Source: a virus
DNA length: 51,752 nt
UHGV virus genome: UHGV-0020692
Direction: 5' to 3' (one strand)
This document shows positions 1 to 51,752 of the stretch, one piece after another. Each line of letters begins with the position of its first letter. Within the stretch, counting starts at the first letter, position 1. Made by a program: the position numbers and the translations under genes. The notes beneath the pieces were generated by a model. That model saw nothing but the letters and a program-made list of their open reading frames with translations, was not told the DNA's origin and did no database searches.

Positions 1-16
1 ACATCATGGTTGCCAT
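1..16 (-). CDS. 5-prime end of the tail-fibre assembly gene (ATG at 16, RBS AAAGGAG at 23..29). It continues in frame at 51752 only if the molecule is circular.
   Basis: The reverse complement of 1..32 reads ctaAAAGGAGattgatATGGCAACCATGATGT. Joining the trailing T to the last two bases of the window gives TAC, then ATG TTC GAC..., in frame with the 51199..51750 ORF. Confidence 0.45.
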
Positions 17-56
17 ATCAATCTCCTTTTAGGGGTAGTGGTTAGAGATAGACGAA

Positions 57-77
57 AGTTTTTCCGAAATTGGGGGC
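57..77. repeat. Left arm of an exact 21-bp inverted repeat (agtttttccgaaattgggggc), candidate inversion crossover site
   Basis: Exact reverse complement of 610..630. Lies inside the FFRNWG codons of the silent cassette. Confidence 0.8.
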
Positions 78-352
78 CTGACCAATCAGAGCGCCCTTCG
101 GGAAGCTGGCAAGGGGATGCCTTGCAGGGGCACTGGCATTCCATCACGGATAGCGAGGGGCGTAAGTTTGCAGGCTATACAACTGGTGGGAATGGGCCTG
201 GTTGGGGAGCAGGATATGGAAATATCCAAGTGCAAGCTAGGGCCATAATCTCTGCTGGTGGATACGGCTTGCCCCGAGTTGCTACAGAAAACCGCCCCGT
301 GAATATTTCCCAGCCGGTCTGCTTGTACCTAGGCAGGCCTACCCAAGTATAG
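59..352 (+). CDS. Start-less alternative tail-fibre C-terminal cassette (FFRNWG...CLYLGRPTQV) in inverted orientation
   Basis: Open frame with no plausible start or RBS. Shares the FFRNWG junction and the LYLGRP C-terminus with the expressed fibre tip on the opposite strand. Confidence 0.6.
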   Translation, partial: FFRNWGPDQSERPSGSWQGDALQGHWHSITDSEGRKFAGYTTGGNGPGWGAGYGNIQVQARAIISAGGYGLPRVATENRPVNISQPVCLYLGRPTQV

Positions 353-1384
353 GATGGCGGGCTGCCATACATGGGGCGGGACAAATTCAGCGCCAGCATG
401 TTCGCCCCATACTGTTGCGGCATCAAAATTCAGCACAATTTGGTGGTGGGCTTGTCCTTCAGCAACTGCAACAGGAGGTCGCTGTGTGGTTTTCGAGAAA
501 CAACCTGAGGTGATGCCGCCGGAAGTTGTTCCCAAAAGGTAGTCAACTTGTCCAGTTAGATTGCGTCCACTGTCAGGCGACCATGCACCAGGTACTTTTC
601 CACTACCCAGCCCCCAATTTCGGAAAAACTGCCCGCTTAGGTTGGGCGTGTACAATCCTGTGGGGTTAGCGGCGTCCGGCCGCCATTTGCCCAGGTTGGC
701 CGCTTTTGTCTTGCTGTCGGCATCCCAGGGGAGCAGCATCCCCTCAAAGCCACCGGCATCATAGACCTGTTCCAGTTGTGGCCAGTCCGCGAACTCAACA
801 AAATCCCCGTTCGCCCAACAGTGGTTGGGGGGGAGCGTCGTGCTGCGCCAGTACCGGGGCACCCCGATCCATGAGGGGTCTAGCGTTGCCGCACTCAATA
901 TCCCGGAAGAGTCGATAAAAACTGTCTCCCCGTCAGGCTGGACTACCCCGGGGCTAGACGACGTGGCCAGAGGTGCGCCATACGCCAGAGTAGCCGCCAG
1001 CCAGGTGCCGGACTCGTCCCCCACGGGATTGACCGCGGGGGCGCTGGGCACGTCTGGCCCGCTGCTTTTCTGGGCGATGTATTCCTTGCCGTCACTGCCC
1101 AGGACGTGGGCCCCCACCAGATAGTCAAGAGACGCGCTCCACGGGTAGAGGCTGCCGGACTGCAGAAAGAACAGATGCTGCCCGATCAGGTTGAACACGC
1201 CGTTAAAGTCCTGGCGCGAGGGGGCTATCCCCCCTGCCGTCAGGGGGAACCCGGTAATGGCCGGGAACCCGGCCTGATACGAGAAAGCCCCGCTGCCGCT
1301 GGGCGTCGTGGCCGGTATGGAATTAAGGTCAGCCGCGTACCCCAGCACATTGGCGAGCAGGTCTGGGCTAGAGGGAATAGGCAT
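329..1384 (-). CDS. Tail fibre protein: constant N-terminal part (1384..631) plus variable receptor-binding tip (609..329)
   Basis: ATG at 1384 (MPIPSSPDLL). Gly/Ser-rich fibre-like sequence. The inverted-repeat arm sits inside the FFRNWG codons. Confidence 0.7.
   Translation of the reverse strand: MPIPSSPDLLANVLGYAADLNSIPATTPSGSGAFSYQAGFPAITGFPLTAGGIAPSRQDFNGVFNLIGQHLFFLQSGSLYPWSASLDYLVGAHVLGSDGKEYIAQKSSGPDVPSAPAVNPVGDESGTWLAATLAYGAPLATSSSPGVVQPDGETVFIDSSGILSAATLDPSWIGVPRYWRSTTLPPNHCWANGDFVEFADWPQLEQVYDAGGFEGMLLPWDADSKTKAANLGKWRPDAANPTGLYTPNLSGQFFRNWGLGSGKVPGAWSPDSGRNLTGQVDYLLGTTSGGITSGCFSKTTQRPPVAVAEGQAHHQIVLNFDAATVWGEHAGAEFVPPHVWQPAILYLGRPA
610..630. repeat. Right arm of the exact 21-bp inverted repeat
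   Basis: Reverse complement of 57..77. Confidence 0.8.
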
Positions 1385-8477: not shown

Positions 8478-9092
8478 GGAATTTCTCCCATTGGGCGCGG
8501 TTATGGGCATCCACGCGGGCTATCTCATAGAGATCAAGAGCATCGCCCAGGCTGTAATGGCATTGCATGTCATGGAGCGACGCCATCCCGCGTGCGATGG
8601 GCACGGCTATGCAGGCCGGGAGGGCTTCGTAGTCCCGGAGGTCAGGCGGTCTGCGGCTGTTGTCAGGCGGGAGTACAGCCCACCGTCCCTGCCGAAAAAA
8701 TCGAAACACACCTCCAGCACACCGGCACGCAGGCGCAACAGCGTGCTCATGTCCTGGATATGGGCGTCCACGTTGGCGGGGTTGAGCTGCACCCGTGCGG
8801 CGGGCGTGGACGGATCAGGGACGCGGTACACGCAGCCCAGGAGCTCGTCGTAGAGCGGCTCCACCAGCTCCCAGCTGATGCCGCCCAGGCCCGAGGCCAC
8901 GGCCTGGGCCAGGGCAACGGCGTTGCTGCCCCTGGCCTGCTCGGCAATGTCGGCGGGAAGGTTGCCGTTGAACAGGGCCAGCATGGCCCGGGCGGACCAC
9001 TTCTCCAGCTTGCTCGCGGGCATTTCCCGGACGACGAACGTTTTCCCCTGGTCTCGGCCACTCTCGATAGTGATGATTTTCTCGCTGAGCAT
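8464..9092 (-). CDS. Tail assembly chaperone G (8607..9092) and its -1 frameshift extension GT (to 8464)
   Basis: RBS TAAGGGAG then ATG at 9092. Overlapping -1 frame ORF reached at the T_TTT_TTC site. Classic placement before the tape measure. Confidence 0.6.
8694..8700 (-). other. Slippery heptamer T_TTT_TTC for a programmed -1 frameshift
   Basis: Zero frame gaT TTT TTC Ggc (DFFG). The -1 frame reads TTT TTT CGG (FFR), continuing the 8464..8709 ORF. Confidence 0.5.
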
Positions 9093-9104
9093 GACAAAAC
9101 TCCC

Positions 9105-9551
9105 TTAGATGACGGCGGGCGTCCATTTTTCAAACGTGATGGTGTAGGCCGTGGCCTGGAGCGTCTTGTTGGCGCCGGGCATGGGCGGAGCGCTGGTGAT
9201 GGCCCCGCGCATGCCGATATATTTACGGCCGATGCCGGGCAGCGCGAACTCGGCACTGCACACCATGACCTCGCGTTTCGCGTCCTGATAGGTCACCCAG
9301 TCGTCCATGATCTGACGGCTCGGGCTATCGGCCGCCAGCGTGACCGTCACGGCCTTGGATGTGGGGGTCCAGCCGAACGACAGGTGACCATCCACGCCCA
9401 TTTCCGCCACCACCGGCGTGATGGCCTCGCCGCTCACCATGGCGTCAGTGCTGTAGCCCTCGATCTTGACCGGGCTGTTGTAGAGGCCGGGCACGGTCAG
9501 GTAGAACGTGCTATTGGCCGCCGTGATGGTCTGGTTTCCCTGGTTGTCCAT
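9105..9551 (-). CDS. Tail tube protein
   Basis: RBS AGGAGG then ATG at 9551. 148 aa. Directly after the sheath gene. Confidence 0.75.
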   Translation of the reverse strand: MDNQGNQTITAANSTFYLTVPGLYNSPVKIEGYSTDAMVSGEAITPVVAEMGVDGHLSFGWTPTSKAVTVTLAADSPSRQIMDDWVTYQDAKREVMVCSAEFALPGIGRKYIGMRGAITSAPPMPGANKTLQATAYTITFEKWTPAVI

Positions 9552-9561
9552 GTCGCTCCTC

Positions 9562-11439
9562 CTACTGGATGGCCGTGGCGCTCATCACGATCTTCTGGAT
9601 GCTGCCGCCATCCATGTAATAAAACGCGCAGTTGGGGGACTGGCGCTCCCCGCGGATGACAGCGCCGGGGTCCGTGATCTGCATAAACCAGCCGGAGCTC
9701 TCCAGCGTCTGGCTCACGTCCTTGCCGATCTCCTGCAACAGCTGCACTTTCTGCGTCTGGCTCAGACTGATTCCCGTCCGGATGGCCCCGAAGTTGATGA
9801 ACCGGTTGATGGTATCCAGGCAGGCGGTGCGGACGCTGGCGTAGCCGTCCTCGTTGTAGGGCAGGCTGCGCACGGCGGCGAACAGATCCAGGATGTTGAG
9901 CTGGAGCGCGTCTTTCAAGGCAATGGCGTTGCAGTAGGTGTCCAGCCAGTCGAACTTGCCGGACACCTGGCCGTTCTGGAAAAATTTGAACTGGGCCGAG
10001 GCTGTGGCGAAATCCGCGTAGCAGTTGTAGCCGTTGGCGATCAGGGCGTCGTAGTCCCCGTCATCGTCGCAGGTGACGGCCACGCCCTCGAACTGGCGGA
10101 ATGCCAACGTCGTGCGGCCCTCGCGCTGGTCGAAGTTGAGGCAGGCAATGGCGCCCATGACGCCCGCGGCCACGTCCAGCGTGTTCCAGACGCAGCAGGT
10201 GCCGTCCAGTTCCAGCGTGTGGGTGATGGCGTAGCCGGCGCTGGCGGTGCTGCCCTGGACGCGGGCCGTGTTGTCGGTGTCCCACATGGCATAGACGAAG
10301 CGGGTGTCATGCCCGGAGCACCAGGTCGCCAGCTCCAGCTTTTCGGCGCGCTCCGGCTCCCAGATGGTGGAGAACGAGACCCAGTCCCGGGCGGACTTGA
10401 GCACGCCTGTCAGGCAGTCCGTGAGGCTCTGGCCGTCCGTGCCCTCGCTCTGCACGGCCCCCAGCTGCTCGGTCAGGTTGAGCACCCGGGAAAGATCCGT
10501 GCCGCTGCCCGCGCTCTGGCCGTAGGCCACGGCGGACGCGCTGCCCGTCTCCCCGGACGTGATCTGAAATGCCTGCGTCTGGGAGCTGTAGGTCACGACG
10601 GGAGCCTTGGGCTGATAGGCGGCCGTGCCCGCTATGCTGACGGCGCCGCTATCCTGCGTGAGGCCCAGGGCTTCCGCGAGATCGGCCACGCCGCCGGTGG
10701 GCTCGGGGTCCGAGGCATAGGAGACGGTGGAGCTCGCGCCCGTGGTGACGGACGTGATGACCAGAGAGCTGCCGGAGACCGTGACCGTGGCCTTGCCGCT
10801 CAGGGCCGTGGTGAGCACCCCGGCCACGTCCGTCAGGCTGGCGACACTGGAGAAATTGAGATCGACCAAATGTTGCTCGGCGCCGTCCACACTGAGGTCC
10901 AGCTTGCCCGCACTGACGGCTTTAAGGGGCTCCACGTTCGTCACGGGGCCGCCGGTCAGTTTGCCCGCCGTGGCCTCGATCTCCGCCGTTTGGGAGAGGG
11001 CCGTCTGCAAACGCTGGGCGCAGTCGCTCGGGCTGGTGGCCGTGTAGAAGTCCACGCCGTTGGCCGTGCGCTCGATGCCGTCGATGGTGATTTTCAGGGT
11101 GCCGTCGCGCACCAGCTTGAGATCGGCCAGCGTGCCCTCATAGGCCGCACCGCGCAGCCACGCGGCGGCCGCCGTCGCCCGGTACGGGGCGAACAGCAGG
11201 AAGCCGGGGAGATACTGCGTGTTGGTGTAGCCCTGGAAATAGATCCGCGCGGCCCGGGCCTCGTCGGTCTCGGAGCCGAAATAGTCCGCCACGGCCTGGG
11301 CGCCGGCGAACTGGAGCACGCGCCCGGTGGGCGGCAGCTCGCTTTGTGTCAGGATCAGGCCGGAGAAAGTGAGGCCGGACGTGCCCGCGTCGATGACGCG
11401 CGGGACGATCTGCACCAGTTTGTCGGCATTGACGCTCAT
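9562..11439 (-). CDS. Contractile tail sheath protein (extended, 625 aa)
   Basis: RBS AGGAGG then ATG. Conserved sheath-like N- and C-terminal regions with a Thr/Ser/Gly-rich insert. Confidence 0.8.
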   Translation of the reverse strand: MSVNADKLVQIVPRVIDAGTSGLTFSGLILTQSELPPTGRVLQFAGAQAVADYFGSETDEARAARIYFQGYTNTQYLPGFLLFAPYRATAAAAWLRGAAYEGTLADLKLVRDGTLKITIDGIERTANGVDFYTATSPSDCAQRLQTALSQTAEIEATAGKLTGGPVTNVEPLKAVSAGKLDLSVDGAEQHLVDLNFSSVASLTDVAGVLTTALSGKATVTVSGSSLVITSVTTGASSTVSYASDPEPTGGVADLAEALGLTQDSGAVSIAGTAAYQPKAPVVTYSSQTQAFQITSGETGSASAVAYGQSAGSGTDLSRVLNLTEQLGAVQSEGTDGQSLTDCLTGVLKSARDWVSFSTIWEPERAEKLELATWCSGHDTRFVYAMWDTDNTARVQGSTASAGYAITHTLELDGTCCVWNTLDVAAGVMGAIACLNFDQREGRTTLAFRQFEGVAVTCDDDGDYDALIANGYNCYADFATASAQFKFFQNGQVSGKFDWLDTYCNAIALKDALQLNILDLFAAVRSLPYNEDGYASVRTACLDTINRFINFGAIRTGISLSQTQKVQLLQEIGKDVSQTLESSGWFMQITDPGAVIRGERQSPNCAFYYMDGGSIQKIVMSATAIQ

Positions 11440-11448
11440 GTGCGCCTC

Positions 11449-11994
11449 CTACGCCTGCGGATGCAGGCCCAAGTTGACGTTGTCGAAAAAATCCAGTTCC
11501 ACGGTCACGCCCGAGAACTCCGGTCCCGGCTGGAGCTCCAGCTCCAACATCCAGCGCGGCTCCGCCTGCTCGTTGCCCGCCATGCCGGTGAGCTCCTGCG
11601 GATCCGTGACCGTGAGGGGCGTCAGGCCGTAGGGTTTGAAAAAATCGCACCCCGTCATGTCCTGCGCCAGCGTCGCCACGGCCTGGGCCTGCGCCTGGGC
11701 ATCCGGCCCGTAAAAATCCACCTGCACACGGCGGCTCATGGAGCGTGCCACCGTGACCCGGCCCCGGCCGTCCTCTCCGGGGCTGTAGCTCCGGGACGTG
11801 GTGGCGTGCCAGGTGGCGGAGAACGGCGTCACCACGATATGGGCGGACGGCGGGCGGCTGACGGCGTTGGTCCAGCCCCGCACGATGGGCAGACCGGCCC
11901 CCACGCACCAGCGGCAAAAATCCCCCACGGCCTTGACCAGCGCGGCGTCCAGCGGCGTGACGACGGGCTGCGTGCCCGTATCTAGCCCGGCCAT
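11449..11994 (-). CDS. Phage tail-completion / virion protein (Mu gp38, DUF1834-like?)
   Basis: RBS GGAGAGG then ATG at 11994. Position just before the sheath. Confidence 0.4.
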   Translation of the reverse strand: MAGLDTGTQPVVTPLDAALVKAVGDFCRWCVGAGLPIVRGWTNAVSRPPSAHIVVTPFSATWHATTSRSYSPGEDGRGRVTVARSMSRRVQVDFYGPDAQAQAQAVATLAQDMTGCDFFKPYGLTPLTVTDPQELTGMAGNEQAEPRWMLELELQPGPEFSGVTVELDFFDNVNLGLHPQA

Positions 11995-13745: not shown

Positions 13746-13860
13746 GGAGCCCCCATGTCTGGATATGTCAGACGGGCATGGATGCCGTCTGCAATTTTGG
13801 GGCTAGTATAGCACATCACGCGGTAACGGCAACCATATGAAAAGTTTGTCAAAACTTGTT

Positions 13861-13875
13861 AAAGTTCGTAAAGCG
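13861..13875 (+). promoter_or_regulatory. Conserved 15-mer AAAGTTCGTAAAGCG (copy 1) within a ~45-bp element that also has TTTGTC
   Basis: 14 of 15 identical to 27808..27822. Both sit at divergent junctions at the head of minus-strand late operons. Confidence 0.4.
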
Positions 13876-13929
13876 TTGCGAAGGGAGGTGAAAGTTGCTT
13901 AAATGAGGGAAAAATAGGGAGGCAATACT

Positions 13930-15024
13930 ATGGATTTTTCTGAAAAAATCGCAGAGCTGACTAAAAAAGTACGGAATATCGGGGACATACTGGGGACGGA
14001 AGAGGCCACGAAAAACGCACTGGTGATGCCGTTCATTGCAGCCCTTGGTTACGACGTATTCAATCCCGACGAAGTGGTGCCGGAATTTTCGGCCCCTATC
14101 GGTGAGTACAAAGACGCTCGTGTTGATTACGCCATCCTCGCTGACGGGAAGCCGATCCTGTTGATTGAGTGCAAGGCTTTCGGCACCGCACTGGACACCA
14201 AGCAATGCAACCAGCTTCAGTTGTATTTCCACGGTACGGAAGCCCCCATTGCCATCCTGACGGACGGGAACCGCTACCGCTTCTACTCCGACCTCGAAGA
14301 CACCAACCGCATGGACAGCAAGCCCTATATGGAATTTTGCCTGTCCGATATGGACGAAACGCTCATCCCCGAGCTGCGCAAGCTGGCCAAGGGCAAGTTT
14401 GACCGCGATGCCTGCCTGAGCGCGGCCAACGAGCTGAAATACAACCGCGAGTTCAAGCGCATCATGGCCGAACAGATGGACAGTCCTCACGAGGATTTTG
14501 CCCGTTTCTTCATCAGCCAGTCCTATGACGGCATGATCACCCAGAAAGTCCGCGAACGGTTTACGCCGATCCTCGTGGCCGCGCTGGATCAGTTCATCAA
14601 TGACCGCATCAATGAACGCCTCAAAAGTGCCATGACCCAGCGGCCGGAAGCCCCTGAAAGCCTGCCTGCGGATCTTCCTGAAGAGGCTCAAGAAAAACCG
14701 GTCGCCTCCAATATCGTGACCACGGAGGAAGAGCTGGAAGCCTTCTACCTGGTCAAATCGCTGCTTATGGGCATAGTGGACGCCGAACGCATCAAGCTCC
14801 AGGACTGGCAGGCATACTGCAATATCGTCCTCGACGGCCGGTTCAAGCCCCTGCTGCGCCTGCACTTTAACAAACGGCCCTGGTTCGTCGGTCTGTTCGA
14901 CGGGGAGAACAAGGACGCCAAGGTGCAAATCGACAAGCTGGACGACATTCTGCCCCTGGGCGACCGTATCCGCGCCACGGCCGTGCAGTATGACGCCGCG
15001 AAAAAAGTAAAGGAGGGAGAATAG
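13930..15024 (+). CDS. HsdR_N-like / PD-(D/E)XK nuclease-fold protein (type I restriction R N-terminal domain family), stand-alone
   Basis: RBS GGGAGG then ATG. Motif VDYAIL...ILLIECK. Lower GC than the flanks. Confidence 0.6.
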   Translation: MDFSEKIAELTKKVRNIGDILGTEEATKNALVMPFIAALGYDVFNPDEVVPEFSAPIGEYKDARVDYAILADGKPILLIECKAFGTALDTKQCNQLQLYFHGTEAPIAILTDGNRYRFYSDLEDTNRMDSKPYMEFCLSDMDETLIPELRKLAKGKFDRDACLSAANELKYNREFKRIMAEQMDSPHEDFARFFISQSYDGMITQKVRERFTPILVAALDQFINDRINERLKSAMTQRPEAPESLPADLPEEAQEKPVASNIVTTEEELEAFYLVKSLLMGIVDAERIKLQDWQAYCNIVLDGRFKPLLRLHFNKRPWFVGLFDGENKDAKVQIDKLDDILPLGDRIRATAVQYDAAKKVKEGE

Positions 15025-15026
15025 AG

Positions 15027-15725
15027 ATGGCGTCATATCTTCGTTTGTTTTTTCTGCCTGCAATCCTCGCCGTGCTATTGGCGGCGTCAGTATCCCATGC
15101 CGGAAGGCTTGACGGGGCGGCTACGGCCATCTCCATCCCGGAGCGCTACACGTTACTGATCGCAGTCATCCCCAAGGGAGAGCAGCTTTCCCAAAACGAG
15201 GAAGCGGCTATCAAGACGGAAATGGAAGCTCAACGGGAAAAGCTGAATGTGGCCCAGCTGCAGGTAGCTTTTTATGCGGAAGGCACCACATACGGCGACG
15301 GGGTCGTCGCTTTCGCAGTCTCGGCAACAGACCTTAATCCTGAATGGGGAATCGTCTTTCCCGAAGATGATGCTCAAGCCAAAAAAATAGAACGCATGTT
15401 GGGGTATGACTGCCAACCAAAAGATCTGTGGCAAGCCTTTGAAGATAATGAGGTAGTGGCCGAGGAGGATTTCAAGGGCAAGCCTGTTGTGATCTACGGG
15501 AAGTGCAAAGGTGTGGCAAAAGACGCATTCGGCAAGATTTATGTCCATATCCCTGTGGATAAAACAGGCCTGTTCGGTATCCAGGTTTACCTGAAAAAGG
15601 ATGACCCGATGTTGCGCCAGCTCAAGAAGGGGGACGCCGTGGGCCTGCGCATACTTCCCCAGCGCTATGTAGCAAAATCCGTACTAGCCGATGGAGAAAT
15701 TTTGACTATCAAACCCAACAAGTAA
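15027..15725 (+). CDS. Secreted protein with a signal peptide, possibly an OB-fold C-terminal domain
   Basis: N-terminal hydrophobic signal (LFFLPAILAVLLAASVSHA). RBS AAGGAGGGAG. Confidence 0.55.
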   Translation: MASYLRLFFLPAILAVLLAASVSHAGRLDGAATAISIPERYTLLIAVIPKGEQLSQNEEAAIKTEMEAQREKLNVAQLQVAFYAEGTTYGDGVVAFAVSATDLNPEWGIVFPEDDAQAKKIERMLGYDCQPKDLWQAFEDNEVVAEEDFKGKPVVIYGKCKGVAKDAFGKIYVHIPVDKTGLFGIQVYLKKDDPMLRQLKKGDAVGLRILPQRYVAKSVLADGEILTIKPNK

Positions 15726-15830
15726 GAAGCATAGGGATGGCACTGTGACTATACAGAGCCTTCCCAGGCATAGGCTCGTCTGACTATTTCCTACGCCCCC
15801 GCTCCGGCGGGGGCTTTTTGCGAGAAGATA

Positions 15831-16580
15831 ATGCAAAAAATCAAGGCACTTTTTATTGCTGCTACCCTGCTTTTTAGTGTAGCCAGCCTAGCCACCGCCG
15901 CCGGTAACGAGACAAACGACAGCTTCTCAAAGGCTAAAAAGATGCTGGAGCAACAGGTCTACTTTGACCACCGGGTCACGGTCTATTGTTGGGCCCCGTT
16001 CGATGAAAAGAAAAACATCGACTTGCCTGTAGGGTTCGCGACGGACAAACACCAAAAACGTGCTCGCAAGGTCGAATGGGAGCACGCTGTCCCCGCTGAA
16101 AACTTCGGTCGTGCCTTCGTGGAATGGCGGGAGGGACATCCTCAGTGCGTGAGCAAGGGGAGGGCGTTCAAAGGGCGTAAGTGCGCTGAGAAGGTGAACA
16201 TGGAGTACCGCCACATGCAGGCGGATATGTACAACCTGTTCCCGGCTATCGGTGCTGTGAATGCTCTCCGCAGCAACAGGCAATATTCGGAGCTTCCCGG
16301 CTCTGTCTCGGCCTTTGGCTCCTGTGAGGCCAAGGTGGACGGGAACAGGTTCGAGCCTCCCGCCCGTTCAAAGGGGCAGGTAGCTCGCGCGGCCCTCTAC
16401 ATGGCGGACAGCTATAACAAGTACCGCCTCAGCCGACAGCAGGAGCAGCTCTTCCGTGCCTGGGACAAGATGTATCCTGTGGATCAGTGGGAGTGTACCC
16501 GCGCCAAACGGATAGAACGGCTCCAGGGCAATGAAAATCGATTCGTCAAGGAACCCTGCCAGCAAGCGGGGTTATGGTAA
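15831..16580 (+). CDS. endA: Secreted endonuclease I (EndA/NucM family periplasmic or extracellular DNase)
   Basis: Signal peptide. Motifs FSKAK, VEWEH(A/V)VPA, EPPAR..G..AR, LSRQQ..LF.AW.KMYPV..WEC.R..RI...QGN, as in E. coli endonuclease-1. Confidence 0.85.
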   Translation: MQKIKALFIAATLLFSVASLATAAGNETNDSFSKAKKMLEQQVYFDHRVTVYCWAPFDEKKNIDLPVGFATDKHQKRARKVEWEHAVPAENFGRAFVEWREGHPQCVSKGRAFKGRKCAEKVNMEYRHMQADMYNLFPAIGAVNALRSNRQYSELPGSVSAFGSCEAKVDGNRFEPPARSKGQVARAALYMADSYNKYRLSRQQEQLFRAWDKMYPVDQWECTRAKRIERLQGNENRFVKEPCQQAGLW

Positions 16581-16592
16581 AATCGCAGTAGG

Positions 16593-16619
16593 GGCGGCCT
16601 CCTGGCCGCCCTTCCCCTT
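16593..16619 (+). terminator. Hairpin GGCGGCC-tcct-GGCCGCC after endA (weak U-tract)
   Basis: 7-bp GC stem immediately after the endA stop. Confidence 0.35.
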
Positions 16620-16858
16620 GACATTTACCGCGTTTTGTGGCGTTGTCTTCACATGGAGCCTCAGAAACTCCGTAGCGACGGTCGCCATTCCGCTTGTCAA
16701 TGGCTTTTTTCGTGCCAGAAGTATGGTATTATTGCCATATTCAATATTGGCCGGGAGTAGGGTAGCAGTAATGCCCCTGCCGCACGCTACGCGGTTCTGA
16801 GCTCCCGGCCTTTTTTACGTCCTGCCAACGCCAATCAGAAACCGTAGCGAGGTTCATC

Positions 16859-17743
16859 ATGACACAGGCTTTGATTTTCAACGAAATCATCCTGTCCCCT
16901 GTCACCTATCAAAATAGCCTTTGGATTCGGGCTACCGAACTCGCCCGCGCTTTGGGATATTCCGATACTCGGAAGATTACCCACCTGTATGAGCGCAATG
17001 CTGACGAGTTCACACCGGAGATGACGCAAGTCATTGAAATAGCCGACGTGCCCGAAATGGGCACCTTGGAAAACCTCAGGCGCAAGGCCCGTATCTTCTC
17101 CCTTCGCGGCTGCCACCTCGTGGCGATGTTCGCCCGCACGCCTGTAGCCAAGACTTTCCGCCGCTGGGTGCTGGACGTGCTGGACAAGCTCGACGCCGAA
17201 CAGCGCGCCGCCTCTCCCTCCCCCACCCCCGACAACTTCACCGGCACCCTGTCCATCACGCCGTCCAGCACCGAAGACCGCAAGCCCCTGAGGGCGCTGG
17301 TAGGCTCGTGGGCGCAGGTCTCCGGCCTGCCCTTCGCCGCCTGCTGGAACCAGCTCAAGGCCGCCTTCAACCTCGCCAATATCAAGGAGCTGCCGCAGGA
17401 GTGGATACCGGACGCCATTGATTGGGTGCAAAAGCGTATCGACGCGCTGCCCGCTCCGGCCCCGGCCACGGCCCTGCCCTCCTCCACCGCATCCCCCGAT
17501 GACGTGGAAGGCCACCTTGCCGCCATCCGGGAGCATATCCGCCACATCCACCGCCACGAGGAAGCCCTGTTCCTGCTGGCCCGACGCTCCCTGCCGCCCG
17601 TCCGCAAGCCCGGCGACATGTTCAGCCCGGCCCGCCGCACAGGCCTGACCGCCTTCCAGAGCATGGAAGACTGCGCCGGTGCGCTGGATTACTCCCTGCG
17701 GGCCCTGGAATCCTCAGCCCGTACCATGCTGGCTATGAGATAA
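16859..17743 (+). CDS. Antirepressor-like protein with a BRO-N domain
   Basis: N-terminal IRATELARALGY Bro-N signature. Shares IFSLRGCHL.AMFARTPVAKAFR.WVLDVLD with 46057..46908. Confidence 0.6.
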   Translation: MTQALIFNEIILSPVTYQNSLWIRATELARALGYSDTRKITHLYERNADEFTPEMTQVIEIADVPEMGTLENLRRKARIFSLRGCHLVAMFARTPVAKTFRRWVLDVLDKLDAEQRAASPSPTPDNFTGTLSITPSSTEDRKPLRALVGSWAQVSGLPFAACWNQLKAAFNLANIKELPQEWIPDAIDWVQKRIDALPAPAPATALPSSTASPDDVEGHLAAIREHIRHIHRHEEALFLLARRSLPPVRKPGDMFSPARRTGLTAFQSMEDCAGALDYSLRALESSARTMLAMR

Positions 17744-28653: not shown

Positions 28654-29367
28654 ATGAAGAACAGCCCGTTGAAGCAACGCACCTGCCGCGCATGTGGCCG
28701 CTCATTTCTGGGCGGCCCACGCGCATGGTATTGCCCCCAGTGCCGCATGGAGAGGCGGAAAAAGCAGTCGGCAGCGTACAAAGCCCGCAAAAGGGCTGGG
28801 GATGTGAGAGAGCTTGGCAGCACGGATAGCTGTGCCATCTGTGGCGCGCCATACACTGTCACCGGGCCAAACCAACGGTACTGCCTGGCATGTGCCCCGG
28901 ATGCCGTCAAAGCCGTCGATAGCGCACAAGGAAGGGCCTACTACATCGAGCATAAGGATGCGATAAATCCCTTGCGCAATGCAAAGCGGCGCAAAGGAGA
29001 GCGCGTCTGCCCCATTTGCGGGGCAGCCTACCAGGCCTACGGGAAAAACAGTTATTGCTCTGAGGCGTGCAGACGCGAGGGGAGGCGCTTGTCTCTTGTC
29101 AAATCTGAGGCCAGGAGGAAGGAGCGGAGAATGCAGGATAAGGCTAAAAAAGATCCCCGGGGAGGGGCGCGCCCCGGAGCTGGACGAAAAAAAGGTGGAG
29201 AGAATAGCACCCGAGAGGACGCCATCAACCGTAGCGTCACTTTGGCCGCAGCCGAATGGGAGGAGCTTGGAAAAGAAGCCCAAAGTTATGGGATCAGTGC
29301 GAACAAACTTGCGGCCCGCATTATCCGGGCACACCTTGCCGCTCAACCTTCTCCCGACACCGAGTGA
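28654..29367 (+). CDS. Triple zinc-ribbon plus C-terminal ribbon-helix-helix DNA-binding protein (candidate transcription regulator)
   Basis: Three C..C-x12-16-C..C repeats. Basic GRKKGG stretch, then RSVTLAAAEWEELGKEAQSYGISANKLAARIIRAHL, an RHH pattern. Confidence 0.5.
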   Translation: MKNSPLKQRTCRACGRSFLGGPRAWYCPQCRMERRKKQSAAYKARKRAGDVRELGSTDSCAICGAPYTVTGPNQRYCLACAPDAVKAVDSAQGRAYYIEHKDAINPLRNAKRRKGERVCPICGAAYQAYGKNSYCSEACRREGRRLSLVKSEARRKERRMQDKAKKDPRGGARPGAGRKKGGENSTREDAINRSVTLAAAEWEELGKEAQSYGISANKLAARIIRAHLAAQPSPDTE

Positions 29368-29788: not shown

Positions 29789-30397
29789 CTACTCACCTCC
29801 TTGCCCGTAGGCATCCAGCAACGCCACCTGATCCGGAGCCGGAGCGATGCGCACGCGGCACGCCCCGCCCCTCACGATCCCGCCTTCCTCCAGGTGGATG
29901 ATTTTCACATGACGGTCGTCTTCCCACACCATGGCTTCGGTCAGGCTGTCCAGGACGGCCTTGAGCCGGTTGTCCAGGTCATAGCGGCGCCTGTCGGGCG
30001 GGAAGAGCGTCACCGCGATGGCGAGACGCCCGGACAGGGGCGCGGACGGTCCCCGCCGCTGCTGCAGGACAGCCCCCACAGCGGCCTGCTTGAACTCCCT
30101 GCCCTCTTTCGAGAGCAGCGTCCTGGGCTTGCCGCCGATGAGTACGTGGCGCCAGTAGTGATTCACCGAGGGCGGCCACGGCAATGTGTACGTCAGGCTT
30201 TTCAAGTTGCTCACCTCCTTCACAGTTTCCCCGCTCCCCAGCACATGGCCAGCACAGTTGCCAGCCAGCAGAGCCAGAGCGTCATCCAGAATCCTTTCCC
30301 GGGCATATCTCCCCTCCCTCTCGCAAACGATACAGGCCAGCGGGCCGCCTATGGCCTCATCCGCACACTGGCCGCAGTGACTACAAGGCTTAAACAT
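29789..30397 (-). CDS. rusA: RusA Holliday-junction resolvase with an N-terminal Cys4 zinc-finger extension
   Basis: RusA core LPWPPSVNHYW...YDLDNRLKAVLDSL...DDRHV. N-terminus CSHCGQC..-..CIVC. Confidence 0.7.
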   Translation of the reverse strand: MFKPCSHCGQCADEAIGGPLACIVCEREGRYARERILDDALALLAGNCAGHVLGSGETVKEVSNLKSLTYTLPWPPSVNHYWRHVLIGGKPRTLLSKEGREFKQAAVGAVLQQRRGPSAPLSGRLAIAVTLFPPDRRRYDLDNRLKAVLDSLTEAMVWEDDRHVKIIHLEEGGIVRGGACRVRIAPAPDQVALLDAYGQGGE

Positions 30398-30493
30398 TGA
30401 CCAATCCCAATCGACGCAGCAGATACGAAGCCATCCGTTCCGACAACCAGCCACGACACCCTGCGGAAACGATCATGATTTTCAGGATGCTCT

Positions 30494-36122: not shown

Positions 36123-36533
36123 ATGGAGCTGAAAGACTTTGTATCTCAAGTTATCACTGAGATTTGCCAGGGGATAGATGACGCCAAGAAAAAGACGGCT
36201 GGAAGCGGGGCCCTTGTCTGCCCGCCCATCTCATCAGTTAAAGACAACATTGCCTACATCACTTACAAAAATGCAGACCACTCCACAGCAGCACTTGTCT
36301 ATTTCGATGTTGCCCTGACCGTCTCCTCCAGCGAAACCTCTGGACAAGAGGGACAAACAAAAGGTAAATTATCTGTTATGTCGCTTTTTAGTGCCAATCT
36401 CGGCATGAATGACACACAGAAAAACGAGCAGACAGAGCAAACTGTCTCACATATTCGTTTTACGATACCTGTTAGATTTCCTTCTTCTCCTTCTGATGTT
36501 CAGGGGATTTCCCCTGGGAAGGCGCGTTGTTAG
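36123..36533 (+). CDS. Hypothetical protein in the rex position (co-transcribed after cI), low GC
   Basis: ATG immediately after the cI stop (TAGATG) with RBS GAGGGG. AT-rich codon usage, suggesting acquisition. Confidence 0.5.
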   Translation: MELKDFVSQVITEICQGIDDAKKKTAGSGALVCPPISSVKDNIAYITYKNADHSTAALVYFDVALTVSSSETSGQEGQTKGKLSVMSLFSANLGMNDTQKNEQTEQTVSHIRFTIPVRFPSSPSDVQGISPGKARC

Positions 36534-36717
36534 CCAACACGGTAAAAGAAATATCATTTTTATCACTAACAAAAGAGCAAACTACTGGCACCCACCCAAC
36601 TTCTGTAATACATTCCACACCAACTTTTAGGTGAAAGCTGACCGGGGTTCCTTCTTCCAAAAAAGGGCCAAGCTCAGTCATGACAGTTTCAACAAAATCG
36701 CCAAGCGACATAGGCAT
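36472..36717 (-). CDS. Small acidic protein (81 aa) downstream of the HNH gene
   Basis: Strong RBS CAGGAGGTG then ATG at 36717. Its 3-prime end overlaps 36123..36533 convergently. Confidence 0.45.
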   Translation of the reverse strand: MPMSLGDFVETVMTELGPFLEEGTPVSFHLKVGVECITEVGWVPVVCSFVSDKNDISFTVLANNAPSQGKSPEHQKEKKEI

Positions 36718-36730
36718 ACCCGCACCTCCT

Positions 36731-36754
36731 GCCCCTCATCACGAGGGGCTTTTG
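36731..36754 (+). terminator. Hairpin GCCCCTC-atcac-GAGGGGC plus TTTTG (plus-strand terminator after the cI operon)
   Basis: 7-bp GC stem followed by a T-run. Confidence 0.35.
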
Positions 36755-36755
36755 A

Positions 36756-37214
36756 TTATGAATGAATCCACCTATGATGTTCAGCACATAGCCAAATCAC
36801 ATCCAATGGTTTTTTATAATTGTCATGGTGGGCATGAATATTGATGGTTGTCCCACATATTTCGCATGGGCACCGTTTTATTTTTCCAGAAGATATAGCA
36901 CGAGCTACTTTTTTATGAGCAGAAGCTTTTTCAGCATTCTTAATTTTCCATCGGTGTAAATACTTGGATTGCTGCTCTGGATGCGCTTGTTTATATGCTT
37001 TACGCTCTTGCTTATGCTCTCTGTTGTAAACTTTTTTCCGAGCTAGACGTCTTGCTCTAAACCTTTCCCTGTTGATTTTATCTATTTTTTTAAGACAATC
37101 TTTACATCGGGACGTTACCCCATACTTACCACCAGCTTGTTTATAGAACTCGCCTATTATTTTTTCTTCTCCGCAAATCGAACACACTTTGAAAAGACCT
37201 TCATAAGTATCCAT
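36756..37214 (-). CDS. HNH endonuclease with an N-terminal zinc ribbon and a basic linker
   Basis: HNH motif CEICGTTINIHAHHDNYKKPLDVIWLCAEHHRWIH. N-terminal CSICGEEK...CKDC. AT-rich. Confidence 0.75.
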   Translation of the reverse strand: MDTYEGLFKVCSICGEEKIIGEFYKQAGGKYGVTSRCKDCLKKIDKINRERFRARRLARKKVYNREHKQERKAYKQAHPEQQSKYLHRWKIKNAEKASAHKKVARAISSGKIKRCPCEICGTTINIHAHHDNYKKPLDVIWLCAEHHRWIHS

Positions 37215-37333
37215 ATATTCCTCTTGCCTTTCCTGAGATTCGGATGGTGAGCCTTTGAGCGAACGGCGCAAGACTCCCCTTGGTGAAGATCACCTCCACC
37301 GGGGTCTGCGCCGTCACGACTTTTTGATTCGGC

Positions 37334-37386
37334 ATGGAGCCGCCCCGTCGCTTTCGGCCCTGCGGACTGTATGCGCCTGCCGCAGG
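37334..37386 (+). repeat. Composite motif copy 1: box ATGGAGCCGCCC(C)GTCGCTTTCGGCCC plus hairpin CTGCGG-loop-CCGCAG
   Basis: Near-identical box at 38383..38408. Stem sequence differs but remains complementary, indicating covariation. Confidence 0.45.
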
Positions 37387-37620
37387 TAGGGAGGTTTAGA
37401 ACCGCGCACGGTTCCCTTGCCGGGCCTTCTCCCTTCAGACTCTACCCGTTGAGCTTGGCACCTGGTTCTCGTTACAGGCCTGCCGCCAGTGGGTTATCCC
37501 TCCCCAGCAGACCGTGCGGGTTAAGCCCGCCACTCTCTCCCCCCGTCTTCGCTTCTCCGCCGGGCCGGGGGCGCCCTGTATCGCGCCACGAGGTGTGGCG
37601 TGATTTTTTTATAGGCCATT

Positions 37621-37672
37621 TTTAGCTAATTGGCAAATACTGCTTGACTGTGTTTTAGCTATTTGGCAATAT
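37621..37672 (+). repeat. AT-rich direct repeats TTTAGCTAATTGGCAAATA / TTTAGCTATTTGGCAATAT (33-bp period), with an embedded TTGACT -35-like hexamer
   Basis: 17 of 19 identity. The only AT-rich patch in a GC-rich, ORF-free stretch. Confidence 0.4.
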
Positions 37673-38382
37673 ATACCCATGGACGACGGGGAAGGCCGGG
37701 AACACGGCCCCACGGGGCCAAGTACCAACGCCACCCCGCCGGACATACCGCCTGAGCGGCAGGGAGGCCCTGAGCAATCGGGGTGTGGGTGCAAAAGAGG
37801 CCCCACCGCAAGCGCGAACGAGGCTCACAAGGGCGGGTGGTTCAGACACAGCGGGCAGACCGCACGGGGCGCAAGTGTGAGCCGTAGAGCCGGACAGCAT
37901 GACGACGCCGAAAAAGCCGGGACAACTCCCGGATATGCGAAGGTGTGGTGAGCACTGGGCCGATACCGTTTTCCGGCTCCAGACGGGCATCCAGTGATGG
38001 ATGGCTGAAATGGAGGCGGAAAGTGGAAAAGGTTTCGCGCCCTGGTCCAAACGCCGTCCAAGCGCGACCGCATCCCGTGCGGCATCCCTCCCCCTGATCC
38101 GGCCACGGACGGCAGGAGCTGCCTGCACGGGCATGGTCGGCGGGTTCGTCGGGGCTGGTTGTCAAAGAGCGAAGCGGTGAGGGATTGTCACCGGTTGAGG
38201 TTCGGTTCCTGGGCCCCAACCGGTTACGCCCTGTACCCAGTTGAATCCCAACTCTTTCCAAATCCTCAACAGTTCCCTCAGATGCCCCAGTGGCTCCCGG
38301 GTGGTGAGCTCTGAGCGAAAGGCCCAAGCTGCCCCTTACCCATTGAGGGGCCGCTGTGACCTTCCGGCGAAGTGGTCCCGGT

Positions 38383-38434
38383 ATGGAGCCGCCCGTCGCT
38401 TTCGGCCCCTGCCCTCACTGCATCATGGGGCAGG
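38383..38434 (+). repeat. Composite motif copy 2: same box plus hairpin CTGCCC-loop-GGGCAG
   Basis: Lies 1049 bp downstream of copy 1 in the same orientation. Confidence 0.45.
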
Positions 38435-38676
38435 TCAGGAGCTTTCCGGCTGATGCGCCGCCTTCCCCGCGTCTTCTCCTGTCTCGCTGCTGCGCTTCGG
38501 GCATGGGGTCGTGGTTCCCGGTAGGATGCGGACGCCACCGTATCGAGCCGTCCATCCGCAAACGCGGCCTACTTCGCAAGGCCGCTCGCGCCTCCGGTAC
38601 ATCGGGGGAGGAAGCCGCTAGCGTGGGGCAGTTTGGTGATGCCCTCTTGCAAAGAAAATCACTTAAAAAAAGTTTA

Positions 38677-38705: not shown

Positions 38706-38755
38706 CTTAAGCACAAAATCCGTGCTACAAGAGGAGGAAAAAAGGAGTGCTTCAA

Positions 38756-41109: not shown

Positions 41110-41973
41110 ATGACACAAGCAGCGACGCTTTTGGAGCAGGCCGGCGATTCTGCGATGAAGCAGAAGGTCAAGGATGTTGAAGAGGCTTTCGGCTTCAATC
41201 CTGCCCCTTTTTCCCTGGAAGCCATCGTGAGCAGCAAACAATTTCCCCCGCAAAAGGTCGTGGTCTACGGCGTGCCGGGCGTCGGCAAAACATCCTTCGC
41301 CGCCACCTGGCCTGCCCCCATCCTGCTCCGCACCGAAGACGGCGCCGGGGCGCTCGACGTTCCTACGTTTCCGCAGATCGCCAGATCCATGAAGGACATA
41401 CGGGACGCCCTGAATGCCCTCATCAATGGCAAGCACAACTTCAAGACGCTGATCCTTGATTCTCTTGACTGGGCCGAGCCCTTCGTCTGGAAAGAGGTCT
41501 GCCGCGAAGGCGGGAAGGCAAATATCGAGGACTTCGGCTTCGGCAAGGGCTACATCAAGGTGGACGATAAATGGAAGGCCATCCAGACCGGTCTCGATAT
41601 GCTGCGCGAGAAGCGCGGTATGCATATCGTCTGCATCGCTCACGCCGTGCCCGTCACCTTCGACCCGCCGGATGCCGACCCCTACCAGAAGTACAACATC
41701 AAGCTCCACAAGCGAGCCGCAGCTCTCTGGACGGAATGGGCCGAGATGCTGCTGTTCCTCAACTACAAGGCCAAGGTCATCAGCGGGGAAGGCGGCAGCA
41801 AGGGCAAGGCCATCGGCAAAGGAGAGCGCGTCATCTACACGCAGGAGCGCCCGGCGTACCTTGCCAAGAGTCGGTGGCCGCTGCCTGAATCCATCACCAT
41901 TGGACACGACAAGACGTGGCAGGCATTCCACGATGCCCTCAACGAAGCAAGCGAAGGAGAATACCGCAAATGA
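41110..41973 (+). CDS. Sak4-like RecA-fold ATPase (AAA_24 family, recombination/annealing)
   Basis: Walker A VVVYGVPGVGKTSFA. Walker B ILDSLDWAE. RBS GAAGGAGAA. Confidence 0.7.
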   Translation: MTQAATLLEQAGDSAMKQKVKDVEEAFGFNPAPFSLEAIVSSKQFPPQKVVVYGVPGVGKTSFAATWPAPILLRTEDGAGALDVPTFPQIARSMKDIRDALNALINGKHNFKTLILDSLDWAEPFVWKEVCREGGKANIEDFGFGKGYIKVDDKWKAIQTGLDMLREKRGMHIVCIAHAVPVTFDPPDADPYQKYNIKLHKRAAALWTEWAEMLLFLNYKAKVISGEGGSKGKAIGKGERVIYTQERPAYLAKSRWPLPESITIGHDKTWQAFHDALNEASEGEYRK

Positions 41974-49686: not shown

Positions 49687-49725
49687 CCTACCTCCGGGCA
49701 CATTTGGCGCGTGATGGAGGACATC

Positions 49726-50856
49726 ATGGCCATACGTGAACGGAAACGCGCCTCACCGTGGCAGTGCTACTGGAACAATCCCATCACCGGGAAGCGGGAG
49801 TGCGCGAATTTTCTGACGAAGCGAGAAGCTGAAAAGCACGATTCCCTGATCAAACACCGTATCAGGTTTGACAGGGAATCGTTCGAAAGGGAGAAAGGAG
49901 AAAGCGAAGAGCAGGAAGAAGCTCCCCAGGAACTCACACTGGAGACATGCTACCTTGCCTACCTGAAGCAGAAGCAGTTTACCAAAGCTGGCCTGCAATG
50001 GCAAATGAAGTGCATGCGTACACCCCTTGAGCTCCTAGGAGCCACACCGATAACCCAGATCACCACAAGGGACATCGAAGCCGTGGTAGAAAAGCTCCGG
50101 CAAAGACCGATCAAGGCCGTCACCGTCAGGGACTACATCAAGGTCCTGAAAAGCGTTTTGCGCTGGTGTCACACCAACGGCTTCTGTGATGCCGTGGTCT
50201 TCCCCAAGCTGCCGCCGGCTCACTATGAGAAGTTCATGCCGCCGACACCGGAAGAGCTGCACGCCATCCTAGCCCATGCCTCTCCGCATATCATCAGGGT
50301 CATCATCCTTGGGGCCCAGCTTGGCGTGCGTGTAGGGCGCTCGGAGCTCCTTTTCCTGACATGGGAGGACGTTGACCTGGAGCGCCGCGTCTTGCGCGTC
50401 CACGGGGCCAAGAAGAACCTGGAAGCGCCGTGGCGTGAGGTGCCTATCCGGGAAAGCCTGCTGCCCGTATTCCAGGCATGGCGCGATCGGGACAGGCAAG
50501 AAGGTGTTGACTACCTTGTCAGCTACAACGGCAAGCCTCTGGACAGGATATGCAGGGCATGGGCGAACACCCTGCGCCGGGCCGGGATAACCCGCCGTAT
50601 CCGCCCCTATGATTTGCGCCATGCCTTCGGCACGGAGATGGTCGCGGCCGGTGTGGACGTGGGCACTGTGGCAAGCCTCATGGGGCACAGCAACCCCACG
50701 ATGCTCCTGACCCATTATCAGTATGTGATGGACAAGCAGAAGAGGGCCGCGGTCGAGGCGCTCCCCAGCATATCAGATGTGCCCAAGCTGCATGTGCCCA
50801 AAACGTGGCAAAGAGATGACACAGCGCAACATGCTGAAAATAATGAACAAAAATAA
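49726..50856 (+). CDS. int: Tyrosine recombinase / phage integrase
   Basis: C-terminal catalytic motifs RPYDLRHAF...GHS....LL.HY. RBS GGAGGA. Confidence 0.85.
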   Translation: MAIRERKRASPWQCYWNNPITGKRECANFLTKREAEKHDSLIKHRIRFDRESFEREKGESEEQEEAPQELTLETCYLAYLKQKQFTKAGLQWQMKCMRTPLELLGATPITQITTRDIEAVVEKLRQRPIKAVTVRDYIKVLKSVLRWCHTNGFCDAVVFPKLPPAHYEKFMPPTPEELHAILAHASPHIIRVIILGAQLGVRVGRSELLFLTWEDVDLERRVLRVHGAKKNLEAPWREVPIRESLLPVFQAWRDRDRQEGVDYLVSYNGKPLDRICRAWANTLRRAGITRRIRPYDLRHAFGTEMVAAGVDVGTVASLMGHSNPTMLLTHYQYVMDKQKRAAVEALPSISDVPKLHVPKTWQRDDTAQHAENNEQK

Positions 50857-50941
50857 CTTCATCTTGTAAAGCCGCTGGGCCAGCATGGACCTGTTTCTGC
50901 ATATTAACATATTGAAATAATATACCTTTTTAAATCAAAAA

Positions 50942-51198: not shown

Positions 51199-51752
51199 CT
51201 ATGCCTTGAGATCGGCAGGCAGCTCCGGCCACGGCGTGGCCTCGCCGCCGCCATCCCAGGGCGCGCCTTCCTGAGAAGGCAGGTCACGCAGGGACTGGCG
51301 GTAAAGCCGCACGGCCTCTTTACGGGTATCATCCAGCGGGTAGTCCTGCATGAGCAGGTAGTCCGTGGCGGCGATACGCCGGTCACGCTCGGCGCGGAGC
51401 TGTTGGAAAAGCTCGGCCTCCGTCGGAGCCGGTTTTTCCGGGCGTACCGTAACGGCTCCGGCAGGGAGCGGCCCCAGGTCTCCCATATATTTGGCCGGGG
51501 ACTGCCAATTATCGCCCTGGTCAGGCAGCCAGTACGGTGTGCCGCCCTGCTTCGTCCCCTTGCCGTCCAAATGCTGGCGGTGATCCTCCACCAGCTCCCA
51601 TTCGCTCCCCGTCCAGCGGGCGACGTGGCCATCCGGGATATTTTCAGGCGGCGGAGTAGGAGTAGCGAAGGCGCTTTTGGTCAGAGGCTTGCCATTGAGC
51701 TCCTGTGCCGGGCGAGCCCCCGTATACTCGCGGGTCTTCACGTCGAACATGT
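51199..51752 (-). CDS. Tail fibre assembly protein (Tfa/Mu U family); 5-prime end runs off the window
   Basis: C-terminal motifs RDRRIAATDYLLMQDYPL....AVRLYRQSLRDLP....W....WPELP typical of tail-fibre assembly chaperones. Confidence 0.7.
   Translation of the reverse strand, partial: MFDVKTREYTGARPAQELNGKPLTKSAFATPTPPPENIPDGHVARWTGSEWELVEDHRQHLDGKGTKQGGTPYWLPDQGDNWQSPAKYMGDLGPLPAGAVTVRPEKPAPTEAELFQQLRAERDRRIAATDYLLMQDYPLDDTRKEAVRLYRQSLRDLPSQEGAPWDGGGEATPWPELPADLKA

Follow-up and report, generated by a model that had tools for sequence, protein, structure and literature searches.

Inversion of a 532-bp tail-fibre tip segment in a complete temperate gut phage that carries no serine invertase gene

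The viral genome UHGV-0020692, a stretch of 51,752 nucleotides (nt) that was analyzed in full and is called the window below, carries a tail-fibre gene whose C-terminal tip lies within a segment bounded by inverted repeats (Table 1). Upstream of the fibre gene lie genes for E217-like tail proteins, a Baseplate_J protein, a coiled-coil protein and a DUF2612/wedge protein, with the capsid, portal and terminase genes further on. On its other side the fibre gene is followed by tfa, encoding a tail-fibre assembly chaperone, which lies outside the repeat-bounded segment, keeps a constant orientation and is the one such gene for both tips. An earlier reading of the sequence alone (the original prediction) held that the segment is invertible and exchanges one fibre tip for another on a constant shaft. 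It rightly recognized two alternative tip cassettes, while the lengths it gave (96 and 92 amino acids; aa) need correction to 93 and 91 aa when counted after the FFRNWG motif that is encoded in the repeats. The two cassettes converge and overlap tail to tail, and owing to the palindrome in the overlap both strands encode the common G-R-P of their shared ...LYLGRP... ending.

The two 21-bp arms of the repeat, at 57-77 (AGTTTTTCCGAAATTGGGGGC) and 610-630, are perfect reverse complements spaced 532 nt apart, and their identity ends abruptly at both edges. Both arms lie within FFRNWG codons that are in frame, one in the minus-strand fibre gene (329..1384) and the other in a plus-strand cassette without a start codon (59..352). 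Apart from the two arms, no further copy of the arm pattern was detected in the window with up to three mismatches allowed, and none of 100 dinucleotide-preserving shuffles of the window produced a matching arm pair. A search of the whole window for other inverted repeats of at least 14 bp within 2 kb returned nothing except two tiny palindromes. The window thus holds one segment with two sites, and the 21-bp inverted repeat is far beyond chance, just as its exactness and reading frame had been described in the original prediction.

We constructed the protein expected from inversion (the shaft joined to tip 2, 349 aa) and searched for it by exact match in public gut metagenomes. The inverted form (protein P0121) was found on six public contigs and the form present in the window (P0001) on 12. 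At the DNA level, the 532-bp segment has the orientation of the window in contigs L001-L006, and it is 100% identical but reverse-complemented in L007, L009, and L011. In these contigs the 500 bp upstream of the shaft-proximal arm are identical to the window, and so are the 500 bp downstream where the contig reaches that far. Leaving the inversion aside, the oppositely oriented contigs L002 and L007 show no mismatch over 6754 bp upstream and a single mismatch over 920 bp downstream. Inversion of positions 78..609 therefore fuses the second tip to the same shaft exactly as proposed, and both the DNA in the two orientations and both exact protein products are on record. Moreover, the silent tip 1 allele in L008 differs from that of the window by seven synonymous and six non-synonymous codons without acquiring a stop codon.

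The contigs showing the two orientations originate from several samples and from different assemblers run with k-mers of 127 and 141. Since these k-mers far exceed the length of the repeat, and since several samples and assemblers are involved, misassembly was ruled out. In addition, the final 23 nt of contig L011, which belongs to the same phage, lie just past the distal arm and match the shaft flank in reverse complement; that single sample therefore contained reads that connect the shaft with either end of the segment. Both junctions are likewise found in two related phages (L062 and L124). Contig ends lie no more than 60 bp from an arm in 14 of 68 related contigs, and in the isolate Bilophila wadsworthia ATCC 49260 one contig terminates inside an arm.

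Table 1. Positions of the fibre-tip switch and of associated features in the window (strand "." where none applies)
Feature	Position	Strand	Description
tfa (tail-fibre assembly chaperone), 5' end	1..24	-	PF16778, E=4.7e-21; good ribosome-binding site; start at 24
Distal (chaperone-proximal) arm	57..77	+	Exact reverse complement of 610-630; core at 61-73; 32 nt upstream of tfa start codon
Invertible segment	78..609	.	532 bp; two convergent tip cassettes; 100% identical in both orientations among public contigs
Tip 2 cassette	78..352	+	91 aa, PDQSERPSGSW...CLYLGRPTQV; silent in the window, without a start codon of its own
Tail-to-tail cassette overlap	329..352	.	24 bp, centred on palindrome AGGCCT; spells Arg-Pro of ...LYLGRP... 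on both strands
Tip 1 cassette	329..609	-	93 aa, LGSGKVPGAW...ILYLGRPA; expressed in window orientation
Tail-fibre gene, expressed form	329..1384	-	351 aa (P0001); constant shaft (residues 1-258) plus tip 1
Shaft-proximal arm	610..630	-	Reads AGTTTTTCCGAAATTGGGGGC; encodes (Q)FFRNWG of the expressed fibre; 13-bp core TTTCCGAAATTGG at 614-626
Tyrosine integrase	49711..50856	+	PF00589; PHROG integrase; sole site-specific recombinase in the phage
attP core	50873..50888	.	Approximately CGCTGGGCCAGCATGG; phage/host comM boundary in L002, L003, L005, and L007-L009 compared with the window
tfa, remainder	51199..51752	-	In-frame continuation across the window ends; 189 aa in total

Related loci were retrieved from metagenomes by exact match to the 18-mer AGTTTTTCCGAAATTGGG, which gave 97 loci, of which about 68 are fibre/tfa loci with shafts 40-88% identical to that of the window. 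The other approximately 29 matches were considered as further targets of the same system and rejected, being single copies in surroundings of other G+C contents, in a number close to chance expectation. With mismatches allowed, two sites were counted in 19 of the 68 fibre/tfa loci, three sites in two, four sites in nine (L028, L045, L050, L053, L062, L073, L086, L121, and L124) and at least five in L123, which is a truncated contig. In the four-site loci the sites follow each other in the order +,-,+,- with a 51-bp spacer. The same shaft-proximal arm follows the conserved shaft flank in about 50 related loci, and the distal arm occupies the same place as in the window, 20-35 nt from the tfa start.

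The consensus of the site is (A/G)GT(T/C)TTTCCGAAATTGG(G/A/T). Arm positions 5-17, which make up the 13-bp core, are essentially invariant, also in those arms that lay outside the search selection, and the sequence beyond the core diverges at once on both sides, the outer side falling into flank classes (shaft, spacer, and tfa side) and the inner side being specific to the cassette. The arm is read as the codons TTT TTC CGA AAT, of which CGA accounts for 1.9% of the arginine codons of the phage, and the joint probability of this codon choice is approximately 0.001; fibre homologs at loci where an inverted-repeat pair was not found have QFLRCW or QFMRCW at this place and use other codons. In 40 of 42 segments from related loci both cassettes are open, with 83-137 codons and the ending ...LYLGRP..., the silent cassettes of relatives being almost always intact; equally many segments show a tail-to-tail overlap of 18, 24 or 30 bp between the cassettes, formed by a palindrome that encodes G-R-P on both strands. 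The conserved core, the rare codons and the intact overlapping cassettes together indicate a maintained recombination site with cassettes in use rather than a relic.

Recombination between the two 21-bp arms flips the 532-bp segment, after which the constant 258-aa shaft is in frame with either tip 1, giving a fibre of 351 aa, or tip 2, giving one of 349 aa. Another phage, whose two orientations are represented by L075 and L090 and whose cassette has a 5' end identical to that of tip 2, helps to place the exchange. Arm position 18 is variable in this pair, and the variant moves together with the cassette, which places the crossover within arm positions 1-17, most likely in the invariant core. 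Both tips end in ...LYLGRP..., and the one tfa gene just outside the segment probably serves both of them. In relatives that stack two or more segments, with four, five or more sites and at least 4-6 cassettes, the locus may work in a shufflon-like manner.

Comparison of the fibre with its homologs shows shafts of approximately 90% identity joined to tips of 25-45% identity, so that the tips are hypervariable, and tip 2 has counterparts on the shafts of fibres from other genomes, P0020 with 89% and P0053 with 84% identity. The N-terminal part of the fibre has weak similarity to annotated tail fibres of Acinetobacter myoviruses in a tblastn search of phage GenBank records, while blastn of positions 1-2300 against the same records and a search of the plasmid database PLSDB returned no match, and Pfam and NCBIfam assigned no family to the fibre or to tip 2. 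An AlphaFold2 model of the fibre, built with 25 homologs, was poor (mean predicted local distance difference test score, pLDDT, 46.3; predicted template modelling score, pTM, 0.29) and was left out of fold searches. Among reference genomes, relatives of the fibre come from Desulfovibrio, Bilophila wadsworthia, and Mailhella (eight loci in a species-representative collection), and IMG/VR contributed only four related loci. The best explanation for these observations is an active and reversible switch that acts on the receptor-binding tip of the tail fibre in a temperate myovirus of gut Desulfovibrionaceae. The change of tip would then be expected to alter host range, with a single Tfa probably assisting both tips.

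Two related loci deserve separate mention. On the siphovirus-type contig L127, a diversity-generating retroelement (DGR) composed of an mtd-like gene and an RVT_1 reverse transcriptase (8948-11480) lies directly upstream of the fibre gene. The L127 fibre has the same proximal arm and a silent inverted cassette with a decayed arm (three core mismatches), so that two tip-diversifying systems adjoin each other. Locus L023 (1-3570) of B. wadsworthia ATCC 49260 encodes a fibre of more than 643 aa followed by three tip cassettes without start codons, one direct and two inverted, and then tfa. Its arm is a variant (TTTTTCCGAG...), and L025, a second contig from this isolate, breaks off within the arm.

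The window is a circular permutation of a complete temperate myovirus genome that integrates in comM, a Mg-chelatase-like gene that is interrupted by the prophage; the join across the window ends is matched by L001 over 4 kb without a mismatch. A tblastn search of the window with Hin and Gin gave no serine recombinase (best E=0.018, over 50 aa), and the Pfam and PHROGs maps of all called phage genes contained no Resolvase domain, the recombination-related assignments being the integrase and RusA only. An RVT domain indicative of a DGR was also absent from the called phage genes. No serine recombinase was found in approximately 0.8 Mb of related loci, a search of 127 related loci returning nothing at E≤0.5, nor was an invertase found in the downstream flanks scanned in L028, L111, L127, and L023. 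The earlier statement that the 51.7 kb encode no Gin/Hin-type invertase is therefore correct for serine recombinases, though it passed over the tyrosine integrase gene, whose product we judge unlikely to be the invertase for the reasons given below. Since this integrase, with an attachment core unlike the arms, is the only site-specific recombinase of the phage, and since phages with unrelated integrases share the arms, the flipping enzyme is most likely supplied in trans. We thus consider it probable that a site-specific recombinase not encoded by the phage, but by the host chromosome or a co-resident element, inverts the segment. The short asymmetric site with its conserved core and variable flanks, as well as the persistence of arrays with direct repeats, would be more in line with a tyrosine recombinase of the Rci type, restricted to inversion, than with a serine invertase of the Gin/Hin type.

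Several points weigh against this interpretation. Supply in trans is argued by exclusion, and the phage has homologous-recombination genes of its own, for an AAA_24/Sak4-like protein (41110..41973) and for RusA (29789..30454). Retrieval by an exact 18-mer inflates the apparent conservation of one arm per locus, and a variant at arm position 4 (AGTC) is not strictly tied to the outer flank (L037 compared with L069), which makes the crossover mapping approximate. In the circular form, moreover, only some 1 kb separates the integrase gene from the segment, and in many relatives the distance to tfa is 0.2-1.6 kb, so adjacency alone cannot dismiss it. That this lambda-type integrase doubles as the invertase, with the arms as secondary sites, is favoured by its being the only site-specific recombinase in the phage; five arm-type repeats (ATGTGCCCAA) surround the core in the AT-rich attP region (50775-51005), some 800 bp from the distal arm, related integrases accompany many arm-bearing loci at the distances just given, and Rin offers a precedent for a phage tyrosine invertase acting on a receptor-binding protein (PMC6109161). 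Nevertheless, the attachment core CGCTGGGCCAGCATGG bears no resemblance to the inversion arms with their core TTTCCGAAATTGG, and identical arms occur alongside four types of integrase that share 23-53% identity with each other. The integrase gene is 11 kb away in L028 and absent from the 10 kb downstream of tfa in L127; NCBIfam places the protein in no invertase family, and like a normal integrase it sits at the prophage end (attL) beside the 5' part of comM (L126). We therefore regard a double role of the integrase as highly doubtful. The same absence of an invertase, together with the Sak4-like protein and RusA, could instead point to homologous recombination or template switching through host RecA or these phage proteins, without any dedicated enzyme. 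Phage recombinases do tolerate short homology. However, more than 30 independent elements show identity that is limited to 18-21 bp, ends sharply and has not spread by gene conversion, the core is kept in rare codons, and the arrays retain direct repeats that homologous recombination would delete. The two orientations also coexist within single samples of otherwise identical phages, which implies a rate above that expected for 21 bp of homology, and this explanation thus appears rather improbable.

A further candidate is a special case of supply in trans, namely a Gin/Pin-type (Din) serine invertase encoded by a second prophage or by a plasmid that shares the cell. Isolates of D. piger show the layout of a fibre gene, a short opposite open reading frame (ORF) and tfa in prophages and on a megaplasmid, and the megaplasmid of D. 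piger FI11455 encodes, about 22 kb from such a fibre/cassette/tfa module, a Pin-like "Recombinase family protein" (K14060; UniRef90_A0A848CGD4) that is 35% identical to Mu Gin (PMC12724379 supplement). In addition, Din sites have a right half-site (GGTTTTTGATAA in hix and GGTTTTCGAGAG in pix; PMC3241671 Table 3) to which the left part of the arm, (A/G)GTTTTTCCGAA, is similar. Still, the fit to the consensus -GTTT---GAA is one base off, an inverted left half-site is missing, and the bases at the would-be core differ between the window arms (GC versus AA), which would block religation. Moreover, the polymorphisms place the crossover inside the arm instead of at its outer edge, and the 127 loci contain no serine recombinase, so we find a Din enzyme unlikely. 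It may equally be asked whether anything flips today, as the locus could be a frozen relic or the two orientations an assembly artefact; the lack of an invertase gene in cis and the single orientation seen in the window itself are in keeping with this. Such a view is opposed by the independent assemblies of both orientations in several samples with k-mers (127 and 141) far above the 21-bp repeat, by the occurrence of both junctions on one contig (L011), and by the silent cassettes that are intact in 40 of the 42 segments, and it retains practically no credibility. The segment is almost certainly a real and active inversion switch. Of the two outcomes that the original prediction left side by side, the need for a recombinase in trans most likely holds, while the frozen relic is rejected by the presence of both orientations and by the intact cassettes.

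A broader version of the trans model is that a single 18-bp "socket" for tip cassettes is common to numerous Desulfovibrionaceae phages that are not related to each other, and that it is flipped by a recombinase none of them encodes, either host-chromosomal or of an unrecognized kind of invertase. The sharers would be E217-like myoviruses and a siphovirus with a DGR, whereas the Mu-like prophages and the megaplasmid of D. piger are counted by gene layout alone and not by arm sequence. We put this forward tentatively, as a possibility that we would not presently bet on.

Other features of the phage genome were noted in passing. In L004 and L006 a different host sequence begins 2 bp earlier than the comM boundary, which suggests either that the host was another one or that integration took place at a second site. 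At 44749-44814 on the plus strand lies a type II hammerhead ribozyme (RF02276), matching the full-length model with 76 bits against a gathering score of 37, in a 77-nt gap between an ORF for a nucleoside 2-deoxyribosyltransferase-like protein (44416-44745) and a Dam methylase gene (44823-45299). The region of approximately 36200-39400 has a patchy low G+C content (down to 38%) in a phage of about 62%, and within it no genes were called at approximately 36717-38756 in two public copies of the phage, so it may be non-coding or foreign DNA with another coding signal. Beside the lysis genes, at approximately 28690-28900, a small ORF (located from L012, 1-168) has a precomputed match to the anti-CRISPR family AcrIC5 (PF22147). 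Between the capsid and tail modules, a block of genes on the opposite strand (13849-17700, -/+) encodes Bro-N, Endonuclease_1, zinc-ribbon, and HSDR_N-like proteins, and they look more like cargo than like genes for structural proteins.

Invertible tail-fibre segments are textbook biology. To our knowledge, the phage carries its own invertase in every well-studied case, whereas the complete 51.7-kb phage described here lacks one and nevertheless switches its receptor-binding tip in the human gut. The same short site recurs in dozens of phages that are not otherwise related and whose hosts are sulfate- and sulfite-reducing gut bacteria (Desulfovibrio and Bilophila). This points to a trans recombinase acting on many phages at once. 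If this is true, such a recombinase would determine host range across an entire phage community, and the host cell or a shared helper element, not each phage, would control host-range switching in the clade. What we consider new is the proof of switching for a complete phage lacking an invertase, the occurrence of one short site across many unrelated phages of one host clade, the minimal cassettes that comprise only the tip and share a single external chaperone, and the palindromic tail-to-tail overlap of the cassettes. In practice, the switch breaks metagenome assemblies at fibre genes, and a single prophage sequence under-reports host range. The compact cassettes of about 92 aa and the minimal site of 13-21 bp might also be of use for engineering phages against Desulfovibrio and Bilophila.

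The locus resembles the G segment of Mu with Gin, the C segment of P1 with Cin, and the P segment of e14 with Pin in that a segment bounded by inverted repeats within a tail-fibre gene swaps the C-terminal receptor-binding part on a constant N-terminus, with a chaperone involved. In contrast to these, the phage in the window has no serine invertase anywhere, and therefore none adjoining the segment, and its site departs from the Din consensus. The segment is also much smaller, with 532 bp and two tips of about 92 aa only as compared to approximately 3 kb, the cassettes overlap tail to tail, and one chaperone gene lies outside the segment, whereas segments of the Mu G and P1 C type contain one per orientation. 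Din sites have 26 bp, with inverted half-sites TTC---AAAC- and -GTTT---GAA around an identical 2-bp core (PMC3241671 Table 3). Compared base by base with these published sites, as the original prediction had suggested for gix, hix, and cix, the arm does not fit, since its similar right half-site is shifted by one base, the left half-site is absent, and the core bases read GC in one arm and AA in the other. The likening to Mu G and P1 C is thus apt for the function of swapping tips, demonstrated by P0001 and P0121 and by the DNA in both orientations, but not as family membership, given the missing serine invertase, the misfit to Din sites, the outside position of tfa and the multi-site relatives. 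With the Min system of p15B the relatives share several crossover sites that permit many fibre ends, although the Min serine invertase is encoded beside its sites, while here no invertase gene adjoins them, every segment possesses a site pair of its own, and spacers of 51 bp intervene.

The arrays in relatives are reminiscent of the R64 shufflon, which likewise has asymmetric sites in alternating orientation, permits inversion only, and targets the C-terminal end of a surface-recognition protein (PMC11852207, PMC4176322). The sfx sites of R64/IncI contain a conserved block of approximately 19 bp, made up of a 7-bp core and one 12-bp arm with a longest invariant run of 13 nt, and a variable left arm (PMC11852207, PMC4176322); the site described here has a comparable architecture, being asymmetric with an invariant 13-bp core and variable flanks, in this case on both sides (PMC11852207). 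The shufflon differs in having the sfx sequence GTGCCAATCCGGTACGTGG and in acting on the pilus adhesin PilV rather than on a phage tail fibre. When the arm was tried as a relative of sfx (GTGCCAA followed by TCCGGTACGTGG), only CCAAT..CGG was in common, and this required a 1-nt gap (PMC4176322), so that the kinship was rejected. No Rci-type gene adjoins the array, the only candidate being the lambda-type integrase with an attachment site of its own, and the integrases of the relatives are unrelated to each other and located at varied distances. Lacking both an adjacent recombinase and a matching site sequence, the system does not match the definition of either the Din or the shufflon family.

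The closest precedents are found in Bifidobacterium prophages, where Rin, a tyrosine invertase encoded by the phage itself, shuffles C-terminal cassettes of a receptor-binding protein (Mavrich et al., 2018; PMC6109161). In an orphan locus of 689b-1 and Bb423phi2, approximately 500 bp comprising one small gene and the 3' part of the adjacent gene are inverted; no recombinase gene flanks the locus, and the authors proposed an invertase acting in trans (PMC6109161). These are also temperate gut phages, and the orphan inversion is of similar size and equally without a flanking recombinase, but it concerns an 8-bp site and genes of unknown function in two genomes, whereas the gene in the window clearly encodes a tail fibre, its two exact products have both been recorded, and the site of 18-21 bp recurs in dozens of unrelated Desulfovibrionaceae phages. 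Desulfovibrionaceae were outside the coverage of that study (PMC6109161), and a paper on D. piger prophages does not discuss inversion. In a survey of predicted programmed inversions (Milman et al., 2023; PMC9881135), genes for tail fibres, for tail-fibre assembly and for DUF2612 proteins were enriched, and this is exactly the gene neighbourhood of the window locus, although the survey mentions neither Desulfovibrio nor Bilophila and describes neither the site of the window nor the absence of a recombinase (PMC9881135). The locus further shares with gene-altering programmed inversions the repeats within coding sequence, the inverted partial paralog without a start codon, and the presence of both orientations in otherwise identical genomes. 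In conclusion, the tail-fibre switch of UHGV-0020692 works like Mu G, P1 C, and p15B Min, and the arrays of its relatives are shufflon-like.

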